Shown here: positions 1 to 50,654 of the stretch, one piece after another
Numbering within the stretch: the first letter of the stretch is position 1
Layout of the letters: each line of letters begins with the position of its first letter
DNA from: Alphaproteobacteria bacterium
GTDB taxonomy: Bacteria > Pseudomonadota > Alphaproteobacteria > UBA7887
Length of the DNA: 64,000 bases
Direction: 5' to 3'
NCBI GenBank assembly: GCA_965214495.1
Contig: OZ243958.1
Coordinates: 1,301,989-1,365,988, forward strand
Notes under the pieces: model-generated
Seen by the model: only the letters and a program-made list of their open reading frames with translations
Databases searched by the model: none
What the model was told of the DNA's origin: nothing
Translations under genes and position numbers: made by a program

Positions 1-3000
1 CCGGCCTCATTGAAGGTCCGCCGTGAGGCGCGCGTTGGCCGAGGCCTATCAGGGTTTCCGGGGCGTTATTGCCCCGGCCTCATTGAAGGCAACGCAAGGA
101 GACAGAAATGGTCCAGCAGCCCTACGGTTTCCGGGGCGTTATTGCCCCGGCCTCATTGAAGGCGGACATGCTCCCGGCCCGCGGGGGCGCCAACCGCTGG
201 GTTTCCGGGGCGTTATTGCCCCGGCCTCATTGAAGGCGATTCGTCGCTGGCGTGCAGCCCGTCCACGGCGCGGTTTCCGGGGCGTTATTGCCCCGGCCTC
301 ATTGAAGGACGGCAGTAGGCCCCCCCGTCCCGGTGGACGCGGAAGGTTTCCGGGGCGTTATTGCCCCGGCCTCATTGAAGGTTCAATCCGCGCTGGCGCT
401 ACGACCCGGTTTACCGCGGTTTCCGGGGCGTTATTGCCCCGGCCTCATTGAAGGCTCAAACGCCCGTTGTTATCAACGCCTTGCACGAACGGTTTCCGGG
501 GCGTTATTGCCCCGGCCTCATTGAAGGCTCGGCTACACCGATGCTTTGGCCGATGCAGACCGGGTTTCCGGGGCGTTATTGCCCCGGCCTCATTGAAGGC
601 AGGGCGTAATAGATCTGGCGGGGGCTGCTGATCACTTGGTTTCCGGGGCGTTATTGCCCCGGCCTCATTGAAGGCGTTCATGCTCGGGCGCATGTGGTAT
701 CGCCGCGTGGGTTTCCGGGGCGTTATTGCCCCGGCCTCATTGAAGGGAGCCGCGGACCCCACACACAGACATGCCAGTGCGGCGGTTTCCGGGGCGTTAT
801 TGCCCCGGCCTCATTGAAGGTCCTTCCTCTCACCCTCGCCGACTTCCCTATGCAGAGGTTTCCGGGGCGTTATTGCCCCGGCCTCATTGAAGGATCTTCT
901 CCCAGTCCACCTCGATGATCTCGGGCTGGGGTTTCCGGGGCGTTATTGCCCCGGCCTCATTGAAGGCATGGTCTGAGCAAGCATGCTAGAACCATCCTAC
1001 TGCGGTTTCCGGGGCGTTATTGCCCCGGCCTCATTGAAGGTGCCGCCAGGACCGCATCCACAGGATCCGCCGCTCCGGTTTCCGGGGCGTTATTGCCCCG
1101 GCCTCATTGAAGGCCTGCTGGATGTTCGACGCGGCTACCGGCATCCGCGAGGGTTTCCGGGGCGTTATTGCCCCGGCCTCATTGAAGGCTGGCAGCGCCA
1201 AGGCCGGGATCGCCGCGCGCCGCGAGGTTTCCGGGGCGTTATTGCCCCGGCCTCATTGAAGGTTCGCCCTCGACGACCAGGACCGTCCGCTCCGGCTGCG
1301 GGTTTCCGGGGCGTTATTGCCCCGGCCTCATTGAAGGGAGTTCTCGCGGCGTTTCATCGCCATGTCCATGCGCCGGTTTCCGGGGCGTTATTGCCCCGGC
1401 CTCATTGAAGGAGCGCGTAATAGATCTGGCGGGGGCTGCTGGTCATTGGTTTCCGGGGCGTTATTGCCCCGGCCTCATTGAAGCTGGTCCCAGACCACGG
1501 GGCGGCGGATGGCATAGGTGTTTCCGGGGCGTTATTGCCCCGGCCTCATTGAAGCGTCGAATTGTCCATGCGCCCGAATTATGCCGTGTGACGTTTCCGG
1601 GGCGTTATTGCCCCGGCCTCATTGAAGCCCCGGCGGCTCGGTGGTGGCCGCCGCTGGTAAGGAGGGTTTCCAGGGCGTTATTGCCCCGGCCTCATTGAAG
1701 CACCGCCGGTCCCATTTTTTTACCCCCCCCCTGCCGAGGTTTCCGGGGCGTTATTGCCCCGGCCTCATTGAAGCGTAGCCGTCTAGACGCTTTTGGGCGG
1801 GTCGGCTGGCGTTTCCGGGGCGTTATTGCCCCGGCCTCATTGAAGCCCGGTCTCGGCCCAGTCCTCGACCCCCGCCGTCACGCGCGGTTTCCGGGGCGTT
1901 ATTGCCCCGGCCTCATTGAAGCCGGCATGGCTAGAGACACAGACGCCAATCGCATCCAGGTTTCCGGGGCGTTATTGCCCCGGCCTCATTGAAGCGAATT
2001 GACGCGGCGGCGGCTGGCTCTGGCCCACATGGTTTCCGGGGCGTTATTGCCCCGGCCTCATTGAAGCGTGCTGATCCCAGGACCGCATATAGAGGATCCG
2101 GCGCTGTTTCCGGGGCGTTATTGCCCCGGCCTCATTGAAGCACGGCGCGGTGTTCCTCGCCGGGCCGGACCTGGATGCGTTTCCGGGGCGTTATTGCCCC
2201 GGCCTCATTGAAGCCGATCCCGGCGCTGAGGCGTCTACGGGACAGTCGGCGTTTCCGGGGCGTTATTGCCCCGGCCTCATTGAAGCTCGGCAAATCCGGC
2301 GGGGCTGGTGCCCGTTCAGGCCGGTTTCCGGGGCGTTATTGCCCCGGCCTCATTGAAGCGGCGAGACGCAAACCGCCGGATAGCTGACGAGCGCGCCGTT
2401 TCCGGGGCGTTATTGCCCCGGCCTCATTGAAGCGGCATCGCTACGGCGTCGGGCTGACGCCGGCCGATGGTTTCCGGGGCGTTATTGCCCCGGCCTCATT
2501 GAAGCTTGTGCCCCGGCATTTCCATCAGGTCTTGGACCGCGGGTTTCCGGGGCGTTATTGCCCCGGCCTCATTGAAGCAACTCGGTCATGGCTTCGGTGG
2601 ACGACGGGCAGTTGGTTTCCGGGGCGTTATTGCCCCGGCCTCATTGAAGCTTGAGCGTCGTGAGCGGGCGCGGCGCGAACGGCATGGTTTCCGGGGCGTT
2701 ATTGCCCCGGCCTCATTGAAGCCTGATGCGCCCCCAGCCCGTCATCCCGCATCGCATCGTTTCCGGGGCGTTATTGCCCCGGCCTCATTGAAGCTTTCGC
2801 CCTCCGAGGCACTTTTTTTCAGCCGCCCCCGCGTTTCCGGGGCGTTATTGCCCCGGCCTCATTGAAGCAGTCGCCTCGATCAGAGCGCCCCCCGGGCCCA
2901 CCGTCGTTTCCGGGGCGTTATTGCCCCGGCCTCATTGAAGCTCGGCGCGGTTGGCGGCGAGTGTCTGGCGGCTGGCGGTGTTTCCGGGGCGTTATTGCCC

Positions 3001-4434
3001 CGGCCTCATTGAAGCGGACCGAGGAGGTGGACGATGCGGTCGGTTGCGAGCTGGTTTCCGGGGCGTTATTGCCCCGGCCTCATTGAAGCCCGACGGACGG
3101 CGTGTGTTTCGGTCAGTCCTTGACGTGTTTCCGGGGCGTTATTGCCCCGGCCTCATTGAAGCTCGAGGCAACGTGTGGTTGTTCAATCGACCCGCCGCGT
3201 TTCCGGGGCGTTATTGCCCCGGCCTCATTGAAGCCCATTGTCGCGTGAATGCCGTCAACACTGTCCGCAGGTTTCCGGGGCGTTATTGCCCCGGCCTCAT
3301 TGAAGCTCCTGTGTTGGGGGCGGCGGCCGCCACCGCCGCCCCGTTTCCGGGGCGTTATTGCCCCGGCCTCATTGAAGCAGATCCACGGCGACTATGTCGC
3401 GCTGCGCTATCGGTCGTTTCCGGGGCGTTATTGCCCCGGCCTCATTGAAGCTCGCTCCACCCGCTCGGCAGTTGCGCCATGAAATCCGGGTTTCCGGGGC
3501 GTTATTGCCCCGGCCTCATTGAAGCCGCGCTACATTCGGCTCGGACGATGACATTGCGGCGGAGTTTCCGGGGCGTTATTGCCCCGGCCTCATTGAAGCC
3601 GAGATCGGCTCCGCGCTGCCGCTGTCCACCGCCGATAGTTTCCGGGGCGTTATTGCCCCGGCCTCATTGAAGCGCGATGACAACTGGCATGACGGCGCCA
3701 TCATAGCCGAGTTTCCGGGGCGTTATTGCCCCGGCCTCATTGAAGCGCGAGCGTGTCAGGCGCCGTATGCGGCTCCGGCACGTTTCCGGGGCGTTATTGC
3801 CCCGGCCTCATTGAAGCCCTGCGCCCGGCTGCATCGCTGCCGGTTTCCACAAGGTTTCCGGGGCGTTATTGCCCCGGCCTCATTGAAGCGTCGGGTTGCT
3901 TAATGCGCCGGGCAAACTGGATTGGCGTTTCCGGGGCGTTATTGCCCCGGCCTCATTGAAGCTGCCTCACGCCCGACCGCTCGATCACCTCGTCGGAGAG
4001 TTTCCGGGGCGTTATTGCCCCGGCCTCATTGAAGCTAGGCGGCGCTGCGGAAGGCGGTCTGCGCATCCCACAGTTTCCGGGGCGTTATTGCCCCGGCCTC
4101 ATTGAAGCTCGATCAGGTGCATGGCGTAGGCGATCTGGCGAGGGGTTTCCGGGGCGTTATTGCCCCGGCCTCATTGAAGCGCGCCGGATGTCCGCACTGC
4201 CGCCCTGTCGCTCCCGGTTTCCGGGGCGTTATTGCCCCGGCCTCATTGAAGCCAGCGCGGCCCCCGTCGGGATACGCGCCCGGAGCGTCGTTTCCGGGGC
4301 GTTATTGCCCCGGCCTCATTGAAGCAGATTTGGACGGACCGTTTCAACGGTTCCGTCGTCAGTTTCCGGGGCGTTATTGCCCCGGCCTCATTGAAGCTAA
4401 TACAGACCTACGGCATCCCCCCCAGAGAAGCTAG
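1..4434 (+). CRISPR. CRISPR array, distal part (~60 repeats). Repeat is GTTTCCGGGGCGTTATTGCCCCGGCCTCATTGAAG plus a terminal G (units 1-20) or C (units 21-60). Spacers are 36-38 nt. The array continues upstream of the window.
   Basis: Exact 35/36-nt repeat recurs with ~73-74 bp period from base 1 (window starts mid-repeat) to 4397. It contains an internal palindrome CCGGGGC/GCCCCGG and a 3' ATTGAAG handle typical of type I/III repeats. Spacers are unique, bar two near-duplicate pairs. The last spacer (4398-4434) is complete at 37 nt and abuts an IS inverted repeat. Degenerate repeats sit only at the IS side (see 7895-8110), so the leader lies upstream of position 1. Confidence 0.95.
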
Positions 4435-5113
4435 CCCGGATATCTCACGGTGTGTAGTGCATCGGCCTCTGTGATCTGATAAAGTCGTTGTTGACCAATG
4501 ACTTGCCAGATCGGGAGCAGAGGACCGATGCAGACGGAGTGTATCAGCAAGCAGTTTGAGTTTGAAGGCTTTGGGAAGCGCCGGGTTGTTGCCGGGTTTG
4601 ACGGCGGTGCGCTGACGACCAACGCGGGTGCGCTACTGCTTCGCCGGACCGATCGGGCGATCGGCCTGTTCGAGCGGGTGGCCGCTTGCTTCACCGATGC
4701 TCGGCGGTCGGACCTTGTAGTCCATGACCTGCGGGCCTTGATCGGCCAGCGCATCGGCGCGATTGCCCTGGGTCATGAGGATGTGGCGGACCACGACGAG
4801 CTTCGCCACGATCCGGTGTTGGCGCTTCTGTCGGATCACTGTGAGCCGAAGCGGCGGGACTGTGCGGTGCTGGCGGGCAAGAGCACGCTGAACCGGTTGG
4901 AGCATGCATTTGGGGATAAGCCCGGGCGTTACCATCGGATCGGCCACGATGCCGGCGCGCTCGAGGATTTGTTGGTGACGCTGTTTCTGGAGGCTCACGA
5001 GGGGCCCGAGAAGCGCATCGTGCTGGACCTGGACGCCACTGACGATCCGCTGCACGGGGATCAGGAGGGCCGGTTTTTCCACGGCTATTACAAGTGCTAT
5101 TGCTATCTGCCGC
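4435..5113 (+). mobile_element. IS1380-family IS, left part. It holds IRL CCCGGATATCTCAC and the transposase N-terminal 205 codons (4498-5113), interrupted by an IS4 insertion.
   Basis: ORF 4498-5130 matches the IS1380-family transposase N-terminus (QTECIS..FEFEGFG..., ending HGYYKCYCYLP). The reading frame continues exactly in the minus-strand fragment at 9123->8336 (LP|LYIFCGRHLLASRLRPANIDA...). The 7-bp CTGCCGC is present at 5107-5113 and, reverse-complemented, at 9124-9130, as an IS4 target duplication. The 4-bp CTAG at 4431-4434 and 8111-8114 flanks the inverted-repeat pair. The reconstructed length is ~1688 bp, typical for IS1380. Confidence 0.88.
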
Positions 5114-6428
5114 CACTGCTGTCCGGTTAACTGATCGTACGGGTTTCTGAACGTCAAGTTTTCTGCGGGTTTGGGGCGGAGAACGGGTGGTGTCGATTTG
5201 AATGCGATGGGGCACTTTGCGGTATTTTTCCGCGGAGGCTCCCATGAACGCCGGCAGGCTCCTGTTCGCCCAGCTGATGGATTATGTGCGGTGGACGACG
5301 TTTGCCCGGATCGTCGCCCGTTACGATGGCGACCGCCGGGTCCGGAGGCTCAGCTGCGCCGAGCGATACCGGGCCATGGCCTTCGCCCAACTGACTTGGC
5401 GCGAGAGCCTGCGCGACATCGAGACCTGCCTTTCGGTCCACGCCGCGAAGCTCTATCGCATGGGGTTCCGTCAGCCGGTCCGGCGCTCGACCCTGGCCGA
5501 TGCCAACGAGGGTCGCGACTGGCGCATCCATGCCGAGCTGGCTCAGCGGCTGATCGTCCGGGCGCGGAAGCTGTATGCCGACGAGGGGCTGGGGCTGGAA
5601 CTGACCAACACCGTTTACGCGCTGGACGCGACGATTATCGACCTGTGCCTGTCGGTCTTCCCGTGGGCGCGCTTCCGCACCGCCAAGGCGGCGGTCAAGA
5701 TGCACACCCTGCTCGATCTGCGGGGCAGCATTCCGAGCTTCATCCACATCTCGGACGGCAAGCTGCATGGCGTCCATGCCCTCGACCTTCTCCTGCCCGA
5801 GGCTGGAGCCATCTACGTCATGGATCGCGCCTATGTCGACTTCGCCCGCCTCCATGCCCTGCATCTGGCCGGGGCCTTCTTCGTCACTCGCGCCAAGTCG
5901 AACATGAACGCCCATCGGGTCTACTCGGCGCCGGCGGACCGTGCGGGCGGCATCGTCTGCGACCAGACCATCTCGCTCGACGGCGACCTCACCAGCCGGA
6001 ACTACCCCGAACATCTGCGCCGCATCCGCTTCAAGGATCCCGAGACCGCCAGGACGCTGGTGTTCATCACCAACAACTTCACACTGGCGGCGCCGACCGT
6101 CTGTGCGCTCTACAAGAGCCGCTGGCAGGTCGAGTTGTTCTTCAAGTGGATCAAGCAGCATCTTCGCATCAAGCGATTCTACGGCACTTCGGAGAACGCC
6201 GTGAAGACGCAGATCTGGATCGCCGTCTCGGTCTACGTCCTCGTCGCCATCGCCAAGAAGCGGCTCCACCTCGACGCCTCGCTCTACACTTTGCTGCAGA
6301 TCCTCTCGGTCTCCTTGTTCGAAAAAATGCCTCTGTCTCAAGCACTTGCCGGAAGCCAATACAGTTGCAACCAGACGGAAATAACTAACCAACTGAATCT
6401 ATTCACTTTTTAACCGGACACTAATGAT
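5114..6428 (+). mobile_element. IS4-family insertion sequence, copy A (1315 bp)
   Basis: It is identical to the copy at 9131-10445, giving identical 403-aa transposases. Termini are CACTGCTGTCCGGTTAA… and …TTAACCGGACACTAATGAT (imperfect inverted repeat, core GTCCGGTTAA). It is flanked on the left by CTGCCGC. Confidence 0.9.
5202..6413 (+). CDS. IS4-family DDE transposase (DUF4372 N-terminal domain plus DDE_Tnp_1), 403 aa
   Basis: A full-length ORF with a characteristic IS4-family sequence. It is duplicated identically at 9146-10357(-). The overlapping antisense ORFs (412/405 aa) are GC-driven artefacts. Confidence 0.9.
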   Translation: MRWGTLRYFSAEAPMNAGRLLFAQLMDYVRWTTFARIVARYDGDRRVRRLSCAERYRAMAFAQLTWRESLRDIETCLSVHAAKLYRMGFRQPVRRSTLADANEGRDWRIHAELAQRLIVRARKLYADEGLGLELTNTVYALDATIIDLCLSVFPWARFRTAKAAVKMHTLLDLRGSIPSFIHISDGKLHGVHALDLLLPEAGAIYVMDRAYVDFARLHALHLAGAFFVTRAKSNMNAHRVYSAPADRAGGIVCDQTISLDGDLTSRNYPEHLRRIRFKDPETARTLVFITNNFTLAAPTVCALYKSRWQVELFFKWIKQHLRIKRFYGTSENAVKTQIWIAVSVYVLVAIAKKRLHLDASLYTLLQILSVSLFEKMPLSQALAGSQYSCNQTEITNQLNLFTF

Positions 6429-6699
6429 CCAACCTGGTTTATCTATCGCTTCTATGGATCGGCGCGCTGTTCGCGTTTCTGGAACACAGGAGGCTTGCAC
6501 GACATCGAATGGCGTCGTGAACGGCGGTGGGACGGGTGCTGAAACCGCTGTTTTCGCGATAGGCGCTGTCGGTGACGGCTCTGGGATCGCACGTTCGAGG
6601 ACTCCGCACGCCCGGAGGAGAAATTGCGCTGGAGTTTCGGACTTCGACCGACATTGAGGGGAACAGGAAACGAAAACTGCTTATACCGGGCGCGGGTCA

Positions 6700-7892
6700 T
6701 ATTGACTCATGTTTCGATATATTGTGGCGCGCGTGTGTGTATGGTCCATATAGTGTGTCTGTGGTTTTGACATGACCGGAGAGTAAGGATGGGTGCGGCA
6801 ACACCGATAACTCGTGAGGATCACACGGCGGATGAACTCTATGATTTGGCGCGGGGGTGCGGGGATGCGAAGCAGGCGTCTCGTGCGCGAGCGATAGCGA
6901 TGATCATGGAGGGGTTCTCGCGGTCGGAGGCGGGTCGGTCGCAAGGCATGGAGCTTCAAATTCTGCGCGATTGGGTAGTGCGCTACAACGCTGAGGGGTT
7001 TGAGGGTCTTGCGGACCGGGCGCGGGGCGGTAGCACGGGGCGGTTGACGGAAGCGCAAATCGCCGAGATCGGCGGGTGGATGGAGGCGGGTCCGGACCTT
7101 GAGCGGGACGGCGTGACGCGCTGGCGCGTTCGGGACATCGTGCGGAAGATCGAGGAGGCCTTCGGAGTGATCTATACGGAGAGCGGCGCCCGTATGATGC
7201 TCCGAAGGTCGGGGTTTTGTTTTGTTTCGGGGCGACCGCTCCACCCCAACGCCGACCCGGCGCGGCAGCGGGCGTTCGTGGCGTCGTTCGAAGCGCGGTT
7301 GAGGTTGGCGCTCAGTCCGTCGGCGCTGGCGGGACCGATCGAGGTCTGGTTTCAGGACGAGGCGCGCGTCGGGCAGGGGGGGATGACGACGCGGGTGTGG
7401 GCGCGTGGCAAGCAGCGTCCCCGGATCGTGCGCGACCATCGCTACGGCTATGTCTATCTGTTCGGGGCTGCGTGCGCGGCGCGGGGCGTTGGCGTCGCGC
7501 ATGTGGCGGACACGGCGTCGATGAACGCGCATCTGGCGGCCATCGGGGCGGCGGTGATGCCGGGTGCGCATGGGGTGATCGTCCTCGACGGCGCGGGCTG
7601 GCATCGCTCGAACGATCTGGTCGTTCCTCGCAACCTGACGCTCGTGCATCTGCCACCCTACAGCCCGGAACTCAACCCGATGGAGCAGATCGTTCTGTTT
7701 CTGAAATCGAACCGCTTTGCCAACCGCGTGTTCAAGGATGCCGCCGCCTTGAAGGAGGCGTGTCGGACAGCATGGCGATGGCTGACCGACCAGCCCAGCG
7801 TCATCACCACCATGACACATCGCAACTGGGCCACCGCTCCATCCCGCTAATCCCAAACCCTAACCGCATCAGTTCGTTTGAATTACGGTTGG
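6700..7892 (+). mobile_element. IS630-family element. The right end is firm, at the TA at 7893-7894. The left boundary is not identified.
   Basis: It contains an intact IS630/Tc1-mariner type transposase. The right terminus …ACGGTTGG|TA lies inside a CRISPR repeat (cgtTAttgcc), and TA is the IS630 target. No matching left inverted repeat or left half of the repeat was found between 6429 and 6790, so the left boundary is approximate. Confidence 0.6.
6789..7850 (+). CDS. IS630-family transposase (HTH plus DDE_3), 353 aa
   Basis: It has the DDE_3 motif …LPPYSPELNPMEQIV… and N-terminal winged-HTH. An RBS GGAGAGTAAGG sits upstream. Confidence 0.85.
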   Translation: MGAATPITREDHTADELYDLARGCGDAKQASRARAIAMIMEGFSRSEAGRSQGMELQILRDWVVRYNAEGFEGLADRARGGSTGRLTEAQIAEIGGWMEAGPDLERDGVTRWRVRDIVRKIEEAFGVIYTESGARMMLRRSGFCFVSGRPLHPNADPARQRAFVASFEARLRLALSPSALAGPIEVWFQDEARVGQGGMTTRVWARGKQRPRIVRDHRYGYVYLFGAACAARGVGVAHVADTASMNAHLAAIGAAVMPGAHGVIVLDGAGWHRSNDLVVPRNLTLVHLPPYSPELNPMEQIVLFLKSNRFANRVFKDAAALKEACRTAWRWLTDQPSVITTMTHRNWATAPSR

Positions 7893-7894
7893 TA

Positions 7895-8110
7895 TAACGC
7901 CCCGGAAGGGTGGACGGCGCGGCGCTGGTGATTCCCGCATCTCTGGCTTCAATGAGGTCGGGGCAATAACGCCCCGGAAGGGCCCTGAACAGGCGGCGCG
8001 CGACGCCCCATAGTCCCCGCTTCAATGAGGCCGGGGCAATAACGCCCCGGAAACCCAAGGCCGAGGCCGAAGCCGCTTCAATGAGGCCGGGGCAATAACG
8101 CCCCGGAAAC
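7895..8110 (-). CRISPR. Detached CRISPR trailer mini-array. Read on the minus strand it has 2 intact C-type repeats, 1 degenerate repeat (CCCTTCC...GACCTC...) and 1 partial repeat cut by IS630.
   Basis: The reverse complement of 8075-8110 and 8020-8054 equals the array repeat. The repeat at 7943-7978 has 3 substitutions. The partial repeat at 7895-7910 ends at a TA next to the IS630 end. Spacers are 20-39 nt. Immediately next to it is IS1380 IRR plus CTAG (8111-8128), matching the IRL junction at 4431-4448. Confidence 0.9.
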
Positions 8111-8114
8111 CTAG

Positions 8115-9130
8115 CCCGGATATCTCACAGGGGCGCGCGATGAGACGCTTTGTGTGTTGTTTGGGTGCGACGGGCTGGGCGCGGGAGCGCACTGTGGCGT
8201 TGTTGTGTTTGGTTGGGTGCCGTTTTGGTGTTTGGGCGCCGCTTATGCCGATTTTCTTGTTATATTCTCAAGATGAACGCAGCCGTCATCGCCCGGCGCT
8301 GGCGCCGGCATGTCAAGGTCACGTGGTGGGACGGTTCAGCGCGATAATCGTCGGTGTGCCTGGGCGAACTCGGTTCGGTAGGGGTGGTTGCTGGCCATGG
8401 AGACGAGAATGCGCCGTGCGCTGCGCCGGACCTGAGCGCCGAGCTTGAGCAGTTTCAAACGAATGGCGCCGCAAGTGGCGTTCTCCAGCCGCGTCGCCTT
8501 CAAGCCGATGCGCCGCAGCGCACACACCAGGACGTAGGCGAAGGAGGCGAACCACAGGCGCAGTTGGTTGGCCCGCATGGTCCGGGCCGAGGTGCGGTCG
8601 GCGAACAGGTCGAGTTGGCACTCCTTGATCCGGTTCTCCATCTCGCCGCGGGCGCAGTAGAGGTCTTCGTAGAGTGTTCGCGCGTCATACCGATCCGCCG
8701 GCAACGACGTGACCACGAAGCGCGGATTGGCGCCCTTGGGGAGATGTTCGGCCTTGGCCACGATCCGGCGCGCCCGGCACCAGCTCTGCCGTGTCCGATA
8801 CACGAAGTCGGCGAACCGCCGCGCCGGCTGGCCGCTCGCCTTACAGGCGGCCTTGGCCGCGCCAAGCTCGCGCTCGATGACGGCGGCCAGCCGGCGGTTG
8901 CGGGCCAGCCCGAACAGATAGCCAACGTCATTGGCCTCGCACCAGACCATCAGGTCCTCACGGCAAAAACCGGAATCGGCCCGCAAAACGATCTCCACCT
9001 CAGGCCACCGGGCGCGGACCTGGCCAACGATCCGCGCCACCTCGTCCACCGCCCCGGCCGCCGCGTCGATGTTGGCCGGGCGCAGCCGAGACGCCAGAAG
9101 ATGACGGCCACAAAAGATGTACAGCGGCAG
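8115..9130 (-). mobile_element. IS1380-family IS, right part (transposase C-terminal ~265 codons plus IRR). It is inverted relative to the left part.
   Basis: ORF 8336-9049(-) and its upstream extension encode the IS1380 transposase C-terminal domain (…RGEMENRIKECQLDL…NHPYRTEF…). IRR GTGAGATATCCGGG (reverse complement of 8115-8128) is the inverse of IRL at 4435-4448. It abuts the right end of IS4 copy B. Confidence 0.88.
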
Positions 9131-10445
9131 ATCATTAGTGTCCGGTTAAAAAGTGAATAGATTCAGTTGGTTAGTTATTTCCGTCTGGTTGCAACTGTAT
9201 TGGCTTCCGGCAAGTGCTTGAGACAGAGGCATTTTTTCGAACAAGGAGACCGAGAGGATCTGCAGCAAAGTGTAGAGCGAGGCGTCGAGGTGGAGCCGCT
9301 TCTTGGCGATGGCGACGAGGACGTAGACCGAGACGGCGATCCAGATCTGCGTCTTCACGGCGTTCTCCGAAGTGCCGTAGAATCGCTTGATGCGAAGATG
9401 CTGCTTGATCCACTTGAAGAACAACTCGACCTGCCAGCGGCTCTTGTAGAGCGCACAGACGGTCGGCGCCGCCAGTGTGAAGTTGTTGGTGATGAACACC
9501 AGCGTCCTGGCGGTCTCGGGATCCTTGAAGCGGATGCGGCGCAGATGTTCGGGGTAGTTCCGGCTGGTGAGGTCGCCGTCGAGCGAGATGGTCTGGTCGC
9601 AGACGATGCCGCCCGCACGGTCCGCCGGCGCCGAGTAGACCCGATGGGCGTTCATGTTCGACTTGGCGCGAGTGACGAAGAAGGCCCCGGCCAGATGCAG
9701 GGCATGGAGGCGGGCGAAGTCGACATAGGCGCGATCCATGACGTAGATGGCTCCAGCCTCGGGCAGGAGAAGGTCGAGGGCATGGACGCCATGCAGCTTG
9801 CCGTCCGAGATGTGGATGAAGCTCGGAATGCTGCCCCGCAGATCGAGCAGGGTGTGCATCTTGACCGCCGCCTTGGCGGTGCGGAAGCGCGCCCACGGGA
9901 AGACCGACAGGCACAGGTCGATAATCGTCGCGTCCAGCGCGTAAACGGTGTTGGTCAGTTCCAGCCCCAGCCCCTCGTCGGCATACAGCTTCCGCGCCCG
10001 GACGATCAGCCGCTGAGCCAGCTCGGCATGGATGCGCCAGTCGCGACCCTCGTTGGCATCGGCCAGGGTCGAGCGCCGGACCGGCTGACGGAACCCCATG
10101 CGATAGAGCTTCGCGGCGTGGACCGAAAGGCAGGTCTCGATGTCGCGCAGGCTCTCGCGCCAAGTCAGTTGGGCGAAGGCCATGGCCCGGTATCGCTCGG
10201 CGCAGCTGAGCCTCCGGACCCGGCGGTCGCCATCGTAACGGGCGACGATCCGGGCAAACGTCGTCCACCGCACATAATCCATCAGCTGGGCGAACAGGAG
10301 CCTGCCGGCGTTCATGGGAGCCTCCGCGGAAAAATACCGCAAAGTGCCCCATCGCATTCAAATCGACACCACCCGTTCTCCGCCCCAAACCCGCAGAAAA
10401 CTTGACGTTCAGAAACCCGTACGATCAGTTAACCGGACAGCAGTG
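9131..10445 (-). mobile_element. IS4-family insertion sequence, copy B. It is identical to copy A and inverted.
   Basis: It is the reverse complement of copy A over its full length. Its right end abuts the IS1380 C-terminal part with the CTGCCGC duplication (9124-9130). Confidence 0.9.
9146..10357 (-). CDS. IS4-family DDE transposase, 403 aa (copy B)
   Basis: Its translation is identical to the ORF at 5202-6413. Confidence 0.9.
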   Translation of the reverse strand: MRWGTLRYFSAEAPMNAGRLLFAQLMDYVRWTTFARIVARYDGDRRVRRLSCAERYRAMAFAQLTWRESLRDIETCLSVHAAKLYRMGFRQPVRRSTLADANEGRDWRIHAELAQRLIVRARKLYADEGLGLELTNTVYALDATIIDLCLSVFPWARFRTAKAAVKMHTLLDLRGSIPSFIHISDGKLHGVHALDLLLPEAGAIYVMDRAYVDFARLHALHLAGAFFVTRAKSNMNAHRVYSAPADRAGGIVCDQTISLDGDLTSRNYPEHLRRIRFKDPETARTLVFITNNFTLAAPTVCALYKSRWQVELFFKWIKQHLRIKRFYGTSENAVKTQIWIAVSVYVLVAIAKKRLHLDASLYTLLQILSVSLFEKMPLSQALAGSQYSCNQTEITNQLNLFTF

Positions 10446-47963: not shown

Positions 47964-50654
47964 TCAGAATCGGAGCCGCCAACCCGCCAGCAGGCCGAGC
48001 GAGGGCTCCGCGTCCACATGCCCCGGATGACGCGAAACATATGCCTCCGTCCGGGCCTCTCCGCCGAGCACGCCCGTCCGGCGCCAGCGCACCGCCAGAT
48101 CGACCTGTCTGCCCGACGGGACGAGATCGGCCAGGACCGACTCGTGCAGGACCGCGCCGTCCCTGGTGCGGCCGACCGGCAGCATGAGGCTCGCCCGCCC
48201 GTGTTCCAGCCGCGGCGGCTGAGACAGCGAGACCGTGATCTTGTCGTCGGCGGTCAGGCGTCGGTCGGCGCGGAGCGAAACCGCGCTCGTGGTCAGGCCC
48301 GACAGTTCGGCGACAACGCCGGCGCCGGCGCCGGGCGCGACCAGACCGATCTCGGCGTCGGCGGCGAGGCGCCACCTCGCGAAGCCGGCGCCGGCCTCGA
48401 GCCCGGCGACAAAGCTGTCCGCCGAGAGCCGGCCGAACGCGCCGTCGGCCGCAGAGCCCAGCATGGCTTCCTGCTCGCTGATCCAGCCGAGGCGCACGCC
48501 GAACCACCCACCCGGCGGCCGCCAGGCCAGCACGGCGCCTGTTTCCGGCGTCTGCTGTTGGAGCATGCCCGCAGTGGTGAACGCCGTCGCCTCGAGGCCG
48601 TTCTGCGCCCTGAAGGTAAGCGTTGCGGCGTTCTCGGCCAGGTTGAGCAGGCTGCTCTCCGCGTTCGCCGGCGACTCGTGGAAACCCAGGCGCCACCGGC
48701 CCCGATCGACGGCGATACCGCTCCGGCCGAACGCCAGCCGCGTGCGGCCCGGCGCCGAAGCGCCCGCGTCCGGTCCCGGAGCCATGAGATCGCGCAGCCG
48801 CGCCATCGTCGACAGACCGCTCGCCACCCTGACGAGGTCTGAAAGATCGTACCAGAACGGCGCCCCCAGCGCGTCGAACGCGGCGATCTCGCGCCCGGCC
48901 AGGGAGCGCGAAAGCCCGTCGCCGAGCGCGCCGCTCAGAAGGACACGGGTGACGCGCACGCTGTGGCCGGCGTCGCCGACGCGGAATCCGGTCGTAATCG
49001 TTGTCTCGCCCACCGGCCAGACCGCGGCGCCGAGGTCCATCAGCCCCTGGCCGTAAGTCGCCGTATCGGCATAGACGCCGGACTTGTTCGCGGTCGCGTA
49101 GAGCCGCGCAACCAGGTCCGTGTTCGACAACTGGCTGCGGAACATCTGCTTCATCGGCGCCAGCCCGCCTGTGACCATCGGCGCCGCGAACGACGTTCCG
49201 CTGAACGATTCGTAGTCCCGAACGATCGCGCCCTGGCGCGGCCCGAAGTAAGCGGCGCCGATCCCCACCCCGGGGGCGGCGATACACCAGTCCGCGGCGA
49301 TGCCGCAGCGGTTGGAGAAGCGCGCGATTTCGCCGTTCTCGCCAATCGCCACCACCGCGATGGAGTGGCCCTGCAGCTCCTCGATGCGCACCGCCAGGCC
49401 GGCATACAGATTGGGCGAGCTCGCATCGAGAAGGCCGGCGGGCCGGTCCAAATAGTCCGTCTCCCCGTCGCCGACGCAGTTGTCGGTACCCGGGCGGCAG
49501 AGGTCTGTATTTGAGTTTCCGGCGGACCAGACGAGGATCGTCTTGTCGGTCCGGTCGGCCTGGGCCATGACTTCGATGGTCTGCTGCATTGCGGCGCGCA
49601 GGGCCGGCACGTCGTCGTAGTTCTCGATCAGCCCCTCGACCCCGAAGCTCTGGTTCACCATGTCCGGGCCCTGCGAGAGCACGGCCCGATAGAGGTTCGC
49701 GTCGTCCGAATCGTACACGGCGAGGATGGCGAGGTCGATCGGCGAGAACGGCACGCCCGAAACCCCGCCGCTGCCGAGGGGAATCGCCGTCATCTGGAGC
49801 GCGGCCCAGGGCGCGACTCCTGTGTGCTGATGGCTGGCTCCCGGAACCGGGTTGCCCACGATGACGCTCGCGACGGCGGTGCCGTGCGAATAGCGCATGC
49901 CGGTTTCGTCAAAGGCGCCGGTAGTGAGAGTCTCGCTGACCGCTCCGCCCCGGAACGCGGGATGAAAGAGGTCGATGCCGGTGTCGATCACGCCCACGGT
50001 GACCCCGGCGCCCGGCTTCGCGTCGGCGCCGTGGAGAATCGGGATCGCCGCATGAGCCTGGTGCGTGTTGATCGTTCTCAGACCCCATTGCCCTTGCGAT
50101 CGAAACTCGGGCGCGGCGAGGAGCTCTGCGGCGGCCTTGTCCCGGATGCTCCTGAACTCCTCGATCGAGAGGCACCCGCGGTCGACAGTGTCGACGACGC
50201 AAGGATCCGGGTCAGGATCCGGTTCCGGGGGATCTGGCGTGGGCGACGGCGGATCCGGGGGATCTGGCGGTTCCGGCGTGGGCGACGGGTTCGGAGGATC
50301 CGGCGGTTCCGGCGTGGGCGCCGGGTTCGGAGGATCCGGCGGTTCCGGCGTGGGCGCCGGGTTCGGAGGATCCGGCGGTTCCGGCGTGGGCGCCGGGTTC
50401 GGAGGATCCGGCGGTTCCGGCGTGGGCGACGGGTCCGGGGGATCTGGCAGTTCCGGCGTGGGCGACGGGTCCGGAGGATCTGGCGGTTCCGGCACGGGCG
50501 GCGGCGAGTCCGGGACTTCCGGCGTCGCGGGCGTCCCGCTCGCCGAGCCGCCTCCCGAACCGCAGCCGGACAACGCGACCGCGAGCGACAGCATCGCAGC
50601 AAACGTAAAAAATGCGCCGTATCCGAGGCTTACGGTCTGACGCTCGTATTTCAC
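47964..50654 (-). CDS. Lipoprotein subtilase (S8) autotransporter with a proline-rich repeat region (SphB1/NalP-like), 896 aa
   Basis: It has a lipobox LSGC, about 8 copies of PTPEPPDPPNPA, an S8 triad (VGVIDTGID, HGTAVASV, GTSFAAPMVTG) and a C-terminal beta-barrel translocator ending …AGWRLRF. Confidence 0.8.
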   Translation of the reverse strand: MKYERQTVSLGYGAFFTFAAMLSLAVALSGCGSGGGSASGTPATPEVPDSPPPVPEPPDPPDPSPTPELPDPPDPSPTPEPPDPPNPAPTPEPPDPPNPAPTPEPPDPPNPAPTPEPPDPPNPSPTPEPPDPPDPPSPTPDPPEPDPDPDPCVVDTVDRGCLSIEEFRSIRDKAAAELLAAPEFRSQGQWGLRTINTHQAHAAIPILHGADAKPGAGVTVGVIDTGIDLFHPAFRGGAVSETLTTGAFDETGMRYSHGTAVASVIVGNPVPGASHQHTGVAPWAALQMTAIPLGSGGVSGVPFSPIDLAILAVYDSDDANLYRAVLSQGPDMVNQSFGVEGLIENYDDVPALRAAMQQTIEVMAQADRTDKTILVWSAGNSNTDLCRPGTDNCVGDGETDYLDRPAGLLDASSPNLYAGLAVRIEELQGHSIAVVAIGENGEIARFSNRCGIAADWCIAAPGVGIGAAYFGPRQGAIVRDYESFSGTSFAAPMVTGGLAPMKQMFRSQLSNTDLVARLYATANKSGVYADTATYGQGLMDLGAAVWPVGETTITTGFRVGDAGHSVRVTRVLLSGALGDGLSRSLAGREIAAFDALGAPFWYDLSDLVRVASGLSTMARLRDLMAPGPDAGASAPGRTRLAFGRSGIAVDRGRWRLGFHESPANAESSLLNLAENAATLTFRAQNGLEATAFTTAGMLQQQTPETGAVLAWRPPGGWFGVRLGWISEQEAMLGSAADGAFGRLSADSFVAGLEAGAGFARWRLAADAEIGLVAPGAGAGVVAELSGLTTSAVSLRADRRLTADDKITVSLSQPPRLEHGRASLMLPVGRTRDGAVLHESVLADLVPSGRQVDLAVRWRRTGVLGGEARTEAYVSRHPGHVDAEPSLGLLAGWRLRF
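50200..50520 (-). repeat. 36-bp tandem repeat (~8 units), in-frame and encoding PTPEPPDPPNPA
   Basis: GGATCCGGCGGTTCCGGCGTGGGCGCCGGGTTCGGA repeats with minor variants inside the autotransporter passenger N-terminus. Confidence 0.85.

Follow-up and report, generated by a model that had tools for sequence, protein, structure and literature searches.

The window (the whole 64-kb stretch of DNA analysed here) opens on a CRISPR array whose repeats, all tabulated on the + strand, comprise 20 newer, leader-proximal G-type units followed by 41 older C-type units; because the window begins within a repeat, the count of 20 is a lower bound (Table 1). The newer block consists of a partial repeat (1-16) and 19 complete ones (54-89 through 1376-1411), all ending ...ATTGAAGG, and the 41 older repeats (1449-1484 through 4362-4397) uniformly end ...ATTGAAGC. 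The remaining 35 repeat positions are identical in both blocks, except that the repeat at 1666-1701 has a singleton G to A change. The two repeat-end sub-types that the first-pass annotation had described within this array are thus confirmed, and come out sharper than first noted, with 20 repeats ending GAAGG and 41 ending GAAGC. Both distinguishing characters, the base preceding the repeat and the base that ends it, switch at one point only, the hybrid junction repeat at 1449-1484, which matches what is expected of a recombinant array and also fits a deletion of intermediate units.

Table 1 Features of the array and of the adjoining insertion sequences (coordinates within the window)
Feature	Coordinates	Strand	Description
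Newer, leader-proximal block	1-1411	+	20 repeats ending GAAGG, with 19 complete spacers among them; the window edge truncates the first repeat
Founder spacer, oldest of the newer block	1412-1448	+	Preceded by the oldest G-type repeat; last base G
Junction repeat	1449-1484	+	G before it (new-type 5' side), C at its end (old-type 3' side)
Older block	1449-4397	+	41 repeats of 36 nt ending GAAGC; 40 spacers, last base unbiased
Interrupted spacer	4398-4434	+	37 nt; last 4 nt (CTAG) are the insertion-sequence target-site duplication
IS1380-type element, left part	4435-5113	+	N-terminal part of transposase; Pfam DDE_Tnp_1_4 profile positions 5-171
1316-bp insertion sequence, copy 1	5114-6429	+	DUF4372 + DDE_Tnp_1 transposase; nested in the IS1380-type element
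Detached old array end	7893-8110	-	Two perfect C-type repeats with a 20-nt spacer between them come first
IS1380-type element, right part	8115-9129	-	Now inverted; C-terminal part of transposase
1316-bp insertion sequence, copy 2	9130-10445	-	100% identical to copy 1, inverted

The right-hand end of the array has been broken up by insertion sequences. CTAG stands at 4431-4434 and again at 8111-8114, adjoining the terminal sequence CCCGGATATCTCAC; the spacer at 4398-4434 ends in this target-site duplication, and the array is therefore interrupted there. The transposase gene of the inserted element is itself split, its remainder being the minus-strand open reading frame at 8336-9049 (Pfam DDE_Tnp_1_4 profile positions 201-432). 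Recombination between the two 1316-bp copies accounts for the inversion of 6430-9129, and hence for the repeats that the first-pass annotation had called a detached trailer: they are the old end of the same array, inverted by the insertion sequences. Beyond the two perfect repeats, this fragment continues with 37 nt of spacer, then a degenerate repeat that opens with CCTTCC, a further spacer of 36 nt and finally a truncated repeat, and its three complete repeats, read on the minus strand (8110-8075, 8054-8019 and 7981-7946), end GAAGC and are C-type, as had been noted. The 64-kb window holds no second CRISPR array, and there is no cas gene among the window open reading frames inspected (10.4-26 kb, and nine frames at 4.5-12.9 kb). 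The syntenic site of the nearest retrievable relative (81% identity) is without an array.

The repeat is a member of the Rfam family CRISPR-DR16, the 37-nt consensus of which begins with G. Scores against the model are 35.8-43.7 bits (gathering score 35) for all 60 + strand repeats and for two of the detached ones, and all array repeats match on the + strand. G-type units align without a gap across all 37 model positions, and the alignment of C-type units has 1 nt deleted at model position 3. A Cas4/Cas1 fusion is encoded just upstream, on the same strand, in 46 of the 52 related loci listed with enough upstream sequence, and the proteins of one such locus (L094) carry the NCBIfam names Cas4g/Cas1g, Csb2 and Csb1; an exception in Longimicrobiales (L003) adjoins cmr (type III-B) genes rather than cas4/cas1. 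A GCTCGCAA motif recurs in the leaders of about 50 related arrays listed, where it precedes the first cut or first repeat by 47-48 nt, and in the window array the degenerate repeats stand at the far (trailer) end. Judging from these sequence comparisons, the array belongs to the type I-G repeat family, its subtype being assigned through the cas genes of its relatives, and it runs from leader to trailer, left to right. The exact repeat sequence is absent from IMG/VR and metagenome contigs, and none of the genome-scan matches listed is an array with the window's loop sequence.

G immediately precedes the next repeat in 20 of 20 newer units vs 16 of 40 older ones (Fisher exact p = 2.4e-6), the former count including spacer 1412-1448, which adjoins the first C-type repeat. 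The first-pass annotation had correctly seen a G-bias at this spacer edge, but its figures of 17 in 19 against about 50% understated the contrast. The other spacer-edge positions show no clear difference between the blocks: the share of spacers that start with C (10/20 newer vs 11/40 older) does not differ significantly after multiple testing, and spacer G+C is equal (0.667 newer vs 0.680 older). Under a 36-nt repeat convention, mean spacer length is 37.40 nt for newer-block and 36.83 nt for older-block spacers (p = 0.03), a difference of +0.58 nt that lies between 0 and +1, and the length distribution prefers a G that is extra by 5.6 log-likelihood units. The newer units read G+GTTTCCGGGGCGTTATTGCCCCGGCCTCATTGAAG+G and are in effect 37-nt units, in which the extra G acts like a base gained by the repeat.

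The founder spacer near-duplicates the spacer at 600-638, with a 27-nt exact core in common, and the reverse complements of the two, read by eye, both span the beginning of a single gene, M(T/I)SSPRQIYYAL. For the founder spacer, synonymous codons were considered as an argument and dropped, the codon being CTN (Leu), where any base is synonymous. A second related pair, the spacers at 1041-1077 in the newer block and 2068-2105 in the older, has homologous targets. The mapping of spacers to phage and plasmid databases that had been proposed as a check was carried out as a blastn comparison of all 60 spacers, linked by runs of N, with phage records and plasmids (E ≤ 1); it returned no match, hence no flanks to compare. 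Neither IMG/VR nor metagenome contigs contain the 27-nt core, IMG/VR has no match to a degenerate pattern for the second pair, and the comparison of 2528 family spacers with all fetched loci and the window gave short chance matches only.

Several observations bear on whether the last repeat base is PAM-derived as in type I-E, as the first-pass annotation had assumed when it offered a change in acquisition machinery or PAM preference as one of two options. If it came from the PAM, the base would differ between spacers, but within each block of the window array it is constant (20/20 and 41/41). The terminal repeat, which has no acquired spacer after it, has its neighbour's last base in 38 of 48 related arrays listed, and the base is therefore carried by the repeat and not by the spacer; under a type I-E-like arrangement it would be absent or arbitrary there, and the oldest, detached repeats of the window array end in C too. 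In a type I-E array, the repeat would be about 29 nt long and the adaptation module would lack Cas4, but this repeat measures 36-37 nt, belongs to CRISPR-DR16 and has relatives that use a Cas4/Cas1 fusion and lie beside the type I-G genes named above. Since relatives of the repeat neighbour type I-G genes, the type I-E analogy does not apply. Published work gives TTN as the type I-G PAM, leaves the base at -1 free and finds that AGC, the repeat end, lacks PAM activity (PMC6547450); the PAM is removed by Cas4 (PMC6547450, PMC10274657). A changed PAM preference is accordingly unsupported, the last base being block-uniform here and repeat-borne in relatives. We also considered insertion of the newer-block spacers in reverse, which requires the old last C to have been spacer-borne and is contradicted by the terminal repeats.

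The family arrays among the genome-scan matches listed (73 arrays, 2623 repeats) provide a comparison set in which block switches at repeat boundaries recur. In these arrays, 13 of 47 boundaries fall at position 36 (binomial p = 3e-10), and the 13 last-base switches compare with about 0.03 expected from background mutation, at a rate calibrated on 20 internal singletons in the 2623 repeats. A single array assembled from L082, L008 and L050, with at least 174 repeats, changes its last base from C to G to T to G in blocks, and further switches occur in L094 (C to G to T), L031 and L090 (both C to T) and L004 (C to G). Classified by hand, the 13 comprise nine transversions and four transitions, as expected for substitution by an arbitrary base. 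Each of the two changes seen in the window occurs alone elsewhere. In L003, which has the same GTTTCC repeat, a switch from 36 to 37 nt takes place while the last base stays C throughout; spacers ending in G number 40/42 among the newest vs 8/25 among the older, and the newest are longer by 1.16 nt (p = 1e-5). In L050, the last base switches and the 5' side is unaltered. At last-base switches, the lengths of the founder spacers deviate by -0.22 +/- 0.31 nt (n = 12), which is consistent with 0 and rejects -1 (p = 0.03), and hence the simplest model, a lone slip of -1 that predicts founder spacers 1 nt short.

Given these patterns, the reading that we put forward, with about even confidence, is that an altered leader-proximal repeat, changed at both boundaries, was copied into all 20 later units, neither change being PAM-derived. 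New units would arise by duplication of the leader-proximal repeat, which would have gained one G at its 5' end, bringing it to 37 nt, the family's canonical length, and exchanged its last base from C to G; the base at a repeat boundary, whatever its identity, would then be copied into every later unit. The ground for this last step is that cut sites are set by rulers, that neighbouring bases can be co-duplicated and that the leader-distal cut is independent of the base at the cut site in types I-B and I-E (PMC4872114, PMC5039180), so that a boundary base is inherited by later units. With the altered repeat copied into 20 later units, the G-bias at the spacer edge becomes the first base of a longer repeat rather than a property of the spacers. 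The 5' G probably came from a 1-nt insertion where the leader meets the repeat; the last base may have been changed by imprecise spacer-side integration rather than by a replication error; in vitro, type I-G spacer-side integration hits the correct site in just 60-70% of events (PMC10274657). Simple drift of the repeat sequence, which the first-pass annotation had held in reserve, comes near the truth for the last base and leaves the added G unexplained. The shared switch point suggests that both changes fell within one or two acquisitions or that intermediates were later deleted between repeats. Given that both occur, two independent changes would coincide at one unit in about 3 of 60 cases; this low chance favours recombination or lost intermediates over a truly simultaneous change, and the coincidence could stem either from the loss of intermediate units or from recombination between arrays.

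Recombination is also the basis of a different account, which we regard as a real possibility although one with clearly less than even chances: the 20 leader-proximal units would derive from a second array, sister or horizontally acquired, that had gained its 37-nt G...G repeat in two separate steps and recombined within a repeat onto the older C-type array. Two independent characters switching at exactly one repeat, and a junction repeat that is a clean hybrid of new-type 5' side and old-type 3' side, are what such a fusion predicts, although deletion of intermediates within one array yields the same hybrid. Mosaics do exist in the family: in Rhodospira trueperi (L060+L062), two linked repeat differences switch together and back, in blocks of 32, 13, 32 and 3 repeats. 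Several of the related genomes listed have more than one CRISPR-DR16 array, but no second array lies within the 64-kb window. Arrays are reported to evolve by recombination, among other routes (PMC4524480), and the locus itself has clearly been rearranged by insertion sequences. Against a fusion, spacer G+C is alike in both blocks, and homologous targets in the two are explained at least as well by a single lineage under attack from the same invaders. An assembly join of two arrays would look identical to a fusion. The first-pass annotation had named fusion or recombination of related arrays as its second option, and this offers a good explanation for a switch point shared by two separable changes.

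Two other explanations fare worse. That two unrelated neutral point mutations struck the first repeat by chance between the same two acquisitions is, in our estimation, very unlikely: adaptation in types I-E and I-B tolerates mutation at positions outside the inverted-repeat anchors (PMC5039180, PMC4872114), and founder spacers are not below average length, but the background rate falls far short of the 13 heritable last-base switches in the 73 arrays listed, and two such rare events at one unit would be very improbable. About as unlikely is a changed acquisition machinery or PAM preference, with both edge bases arriving with the spacer and Cas4/Cas1-Cas2 trimming or selecting prespacers differently, for although both changes begin together and are kept in 20/20 units, and a change in trans (for example, replacement of the adaptation module by one with another ruler) would shift the cut site in all later acquisitions, the PAM, TTN, leaves any base at -1 and is taken off by Cas4 (PMC6547450, PMC10274657), the last base looks repeat-borne in 38/48 related arrays listed, the two changes are separable (the added G alone in L003, the last base alone in L050) and spacer-edge composition is otherwise the same in both blocks. 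A one-base shift of both cuts with a fixed 36-nt ruler would make the first spacer base the last repeat base, which would then be variable and could not be G in 20/20. The ordinary copying of an altered first repeat, or the joining of two arrays at a repeat, fits better than an altered choice of viral DNA.

The newer block is a real but fairly ordinary feature, and what the window contributes is mainly corrective: the repeat family is that of type I-G and not I-E, the G-bias is a longer repeat, and there is no sign of a changed PAM. Across the family, both boundary bases of the CRISPR-DR16 repeat are soft, the last base flipping in blocks at a frequency far above background mutation and the length toggling between 36 and 37 nt. 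These variants could be used for dating events within arrays, for recognising recombinant arrays and for avoiding mis-called spacer boundaries, and hence PAMs, in type I-G systems. More tentatively, and with some doubt on our part, type I-G integrases might make heritable off-by-one boundary errors in nature, of which long arrays would hold a dated record. A slipped spacer-side cut would rewrite the last base, which might be the N from the TTN PAM of the founder spacer and would then be copied, and a base gained at the leader junction would toggle the repeat between 36 and 37 nt. If so, the fidelity of both integration steps could be estimated in vivo from arrays like this one, which would also show the leader-side cut to be measured from the leader motif.

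Compared with the type I-G (formerly I-U) arrays of Geobacter sulfurreducens and Methanosarcina barkeri, which Cas4/Cas1-Cas2 serves (PMC6547450, PMC10274657), the window array is alike in its above-gathering match to CRISPR-DR16, its 7-bp G+C stem, 6-nt loop and ...ATTGAAGC tail (the G. sulfurreducens repeat also ends AGC), its spacers of 35-40 nt and the position of its repeat relatives downstream of cas4g/cas1g, csb2 and csb1, and differs in mixing 36-nt and 37-nt repeat forms and two last bases; its own cas genes and leader lie outside the window. As in Escherichia coli type I-E, the base at issue adjoins the PAM-proximal end of the spacer; unlike there, it is uniform in long blocks and present in the terminal repeats of related arrays (38/48 listed), the repeat family and subtype differ, and the type I-G PAM has N at this position and is taken off by Cas4. 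Mosaic or recombinant arrays, as reported in PMC4524480 and seen in R. trueperi, resemble ours in that variant blocks meet sharply within a repeat and several differences change together, whereas the differences in the window are confined to the two repeat boundaries and no donor array is known. A parallel to copying of an altered first repeat comes from the type I-B system of Haloarcula hispanica and the type I-E system of E. coli (PMC4872114, PMC5039180), in which cut sites are measured and not read, mutants co-duplicate the repeat-adjacent base and stably longer repeats result when bases are inserted upstream of the first inverted repeat. Such co-duplication is the behaviour that faithful copying of the G...G variant requires. 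Those repeats were engineered and of other subtypes, whereas the window variants are natural and stand in a type I-G-family array, which makes them a natural counterpart to the ruler experiments.

A single CRISPR array occupies positions 1–4397 on the + strand, its repeat being GTTTCCGGGGCGTTATTGCCCCGGCCTCATTGAAG followed by one further base that divides the array in two. Full tabulation of the last and edge bases bore out the first-pass annotation, which had proposed two last-base sub-types within one array: 20 G-type repeats are followed by 41 C-type repeats. A bias towards G at the spacer edge in the newer units had also been claimed, and the contrast is stronger than that claim, as the base before the next repeat is G for 20/20 spacers after a G-type repeat versus 16/40 of the others (Fisher p = 2.4e-6). 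Both characters switch at one sharp point, the repeat at 1449–1484, which has a preceding G but a final C. When the G-type and C-type blocks were compared, neither any other spacer-edge position nor spacer G+C separated them. Among internal repeats, a point change occurs only at 1666–1701, where G->A at repeat position 7 breaks the second pair of the stem.

All repeats matched Rfam CRISPR-DR16 on the + strand, a model of 37 nt (GUaUuCCGgGGCaaUaAUGCCcCGGCCUCAUUGAAaC). Searching species-representative genomes with a relaxed form of the repeat retrieved at least 116 stretches from many phyla; among the matches listed, 46 of the 52 loci with at least 2.5 kb of preceding sequence carry a Cas4/Cas1 fusion ~0.5 kb ahead of the array and in the same orientation. 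In one such locus (L094) the upstream proteins are named by NCBIfam as Cas4g/Cas1g, Csb2 and Csb1/Cas7g. By its repeat family the window locus would be assigned to type I-G; no cas gene was found among the window ORFs inspected (10.4–26 kb read; nine ORFs at 4.5–12.9 kb scanned). The family match and the layout of related loci fix the direction of the window array, whose leader is beyond the left edge and whose oldest units stand at the right. Leaders of related arrays share a motif, GCTCGCAA, also seen as GCTCGAAA, which ends 47–48 nt before the first repeat in ~50 related loci from many phyla (for example L094, 4948–5017). Among the matches listed, the first repeat's TTCC stands at a distance from the motif TCG of 49 in 28 arrays and 50 in 10 arrays with 36-nt repeats, and of 50 in 10 and 51 in 2 with 37-nt repeats. 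These distances place the leader-side cut 47–48 nt after the motif in all these arrays; the motif is a candidate anchor for that cut. Elsewhere in the window, a tandem repeat at 50224–50504 (36-nt unit, 7.7 copies, 91% identity) is GGC/GGT-rich, glycine-rich if translated, and lies in long overlapping ORFs.

The right-hand end of the array has been rearranged. Insertion of an IS1380-type element, marked by a CTAG target duplication, interrupted the array end. Nested in this element is one copy of a 1316-bp insertion sequence, a second and inverted copy stands 2.7 kb away, and recombination between the two inverted 6430–9129, the old array end included. The split element and the inverted copies thus identify the detached trailer as the original array end, severed by insertion and flipped by inversion. 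Its two oldest repeats (7981–7946 and 7909–7893, - strand) start CCTTCC rather than GTTTCC, as do repeats in Rhodospira and Roseospira arrays, so that the repeat 5' end has changed at least twice in the window lineage; one of the two also carries G->A in the 3' stem half. A spacer of just 20 nt (GGCTTCGGCCTCGGCCTTGG; 8074–8055, - strand), roughly half as long as usual, separates the pair of perfect repeats in this detached segment. In the syntenic region of the nearest retrievable relative, whose dehydrogenase is 81% identical, GST and DUF1800/DUF1501 genes stand where the window has insertion sequences and array, and the CRISPR locus therefore occupies a variable spot.

Features of the array and of the sequence adjoining its old end
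Feature	Position	Strand	Remarks
G-type repeats	partial 1–16; 19 repeats, 54–89 to 1376–1411	+	last base G in all
C-type repeats	41 repeats, 1449–1484 to 4362–4397	+	last base C in all
Spacer	4398–4434		37 nt, after last repeat; final CTAG recurs at 8111–8114 beside same terminal sequence
IS1380-type element, one part	4435–5113		transposase profile positions 5–171
IS1380-type element, other part	8115–9129	inverted	profile positions 201–432
1316-bp insertion sequence, two copies	5114–6429 and 9130–10445	inverted copies	100% identical
IS630-type transposase gene	6789–7850		adjoins old trailer
Old array end	8110–7893	-	two perfect C-type repeats, degenerate repeat starting CCTTCC, truncated repeat

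The first-pass annotation had taken the last repeat base to be PAM-derived, as in type I-E, and this was not borne out. A PAM-derived base should vary from spacer to spacer, whereas the observed base is constant in blocks. Moreover, in related arrays with a true end, the terminal repeat, which has no acquired spacer after it, matches its neighbour's last base in 38/48 cases (and is C in 40/48), indicating that the last base belongs to the duplicated repeat. In type I-G the PAM is TTN, and interference is licensed by any of the four bases at -1 but not by the repeat end AGC (PMC6547450). Protospacers of the window spacers were sought in phage records, plasmids, IMG/VR and metagenome contigs, and none turned up.

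Related arrays bear on the G before the repeat. An extra 5' base, usually G, is present in many 37-nt repeats of the family, the Rfam consensus included. In the Longimicrobiales array L003 (OZ220479.1, 1–2990 in array orientation), repeats start GTTTCC as in the window and every repeat ends in C, while 40/42 of the newest spacers versus 8/25 of the older ones end in G. Newer spacers exceed older ones in length by 1.16 nt (38.24 vs 37.08, p = 1e-5), and both non-G exceptions among them are 1 nt shorter. In L003 the duplicated unit has clearly gained the G as an extra base, and the last base did not change at the switch. The motif-to-TTCC distance of 51 puts the cut at 49 nt if repeats are 36 nt and at the usual 48 nt if they are 37 nt; a cut distance of 49 nt was found in no other related array among the matches listed. 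Gain of 1 nt in the run of G at the junction (TAGG|GTTTCC), with the cut held at a fixed leader distance, would account for this change. Stably longer repeats arise in E. coli when bases are inserted ahead of the first inverted repeat (PMC5039180), and in Haloarcula mutants a neighbouring G is co-duplicated (PMC4872114). For the window, the length shift of newer relative to older spacers is +0.58 nt, and with the older block's length distribution as reference, a margin of 5.6 log-likelihood units favours an extra G over a G that closes the spacer itself. L003 itself lies directly downstream of cmr4, cmr5 and cmr6-like genes in place of a Cas4/Cas1 fusion, has the usual leader motif and contains two identical neighbouring spacers; its genome also encodes a Cas4/Cas1 fusion and Csb2 ~10 kb off (L116). 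Type I-G-type repeats would thus seem to be shared there by a type III-B system.

The last base, in turn, is a hot spot of change in the family. A Thalassobaculaceae array retrieved as contiguous tiles (L082, L008 and L050; OY729512.2, ~4535610–4548500) comprises at least 174 repeats, each 37 nt long, with last bases from old to new of C (33), G (63), T (30) and G (48). L094 passes from C to G to T, L031 and L090 switch C -> T and L004 C -> G, and in L002, L016 and L017 the difference is confined to the terminal repeat. Position 36 accounts for 13 of 47 heritable boundaries in 73 arrays (binomial p = 3e-10), and against a background calibrated on internal singletons (20 in 2623 repeats) ~0.03 last-base switches were expected versus 13 seen (Poisson p ~4e-30), although decay of the last repeat may lie behind some of the terminal-repeat differences included in the count. 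The 13 changes comprise nine transversions and four transitions, in line with the 2:1 ratio expected if an arbitrary base is substituted. An integration-linked cause is therefore likely. Type I-G integration in vitro uses the correct spacer-side site in only 60–70% of events (PMC10274657). Under a simple slip, the first base of the founder spacer (the first with a new repeat variant) would turn into the repeat's last base and founders should lack 1 nt; they deviated by -0.22 +/- 0.31 nt (n = 12), and -1 was rejected (p = 0.03). A slip might also be combined with a prespacer that carries one base too many, such as a retained PAM N.

The window's own founder spacer, 1412–1448, shares 27 nt exactly with the spacer at 600–638, and by manual reading their reverse complements are two variants of one gene start with no indel (GTG ATC AGC... 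/ ATG ACC AGC..., M(I/T)SSPRQIYYAL). Counting the G before 1412 as spacer would make both begin at the same target position, which might, weakly, fit a slip when the block was founded; at its other end, 1412–1448 closes with a G that mismatches the corresponding base of the other variant, which would equally weakly suit a non-templated G. An argument from synonymy for the first-end base of this pair was ruled out, as the codon is CTN. A second pair, 1041–1077 and 2068–2105, encodes RRIL(W/Y)MRSW in two variants, has starts 4 nt apart and carries no information on edge bases. Both pairs derive from different variants of homologous targets.

Why, then, do both changes share one unit? Each is seen alone elsewhere, the 5' G in L003 and the last base in L050, and independent changes would be unlikely to land within one or two acquisitions out of 60. 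We give about even chances to an in-lineage change of both boundaries, with or without later deletion of units: the changes may have arisen at about the same time, or at different times with intermediate units later deleted between repeats, either of which would leave the hybrid junction repeat. Fusion of two diverged arrays by recombination, also raised at first pass, is a possible but less likely alternative and would leave the same hybrid repeat. Recombination-like mosaics do occur in the family: in Rhodospira trueperi (L060 and L062, contiguous, NZ_FNAP01000003.1), two repeat variants, distinguished by linked differences at positions 2 and 15, alternate in blocks of 32, 13, 32 and 3, a pattern that stepwise mutation does not explain. 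A change in acquisition machinery or PAM preference, the remaining proposal, we consider highly improbable.

The window array thus belongs to the type I-G repeat family as an ordinary member, one whose repeat ends are polymorphic. Our literature search found no description of natural block-wise last-base switches, or of 36/37-nt repeat toggling, in type I-G arrays; the record of both is a modest addition and not a new kind of system. Experiments on cut-site rulers in types I-B and I-E predict how such repeat-end variants persist.
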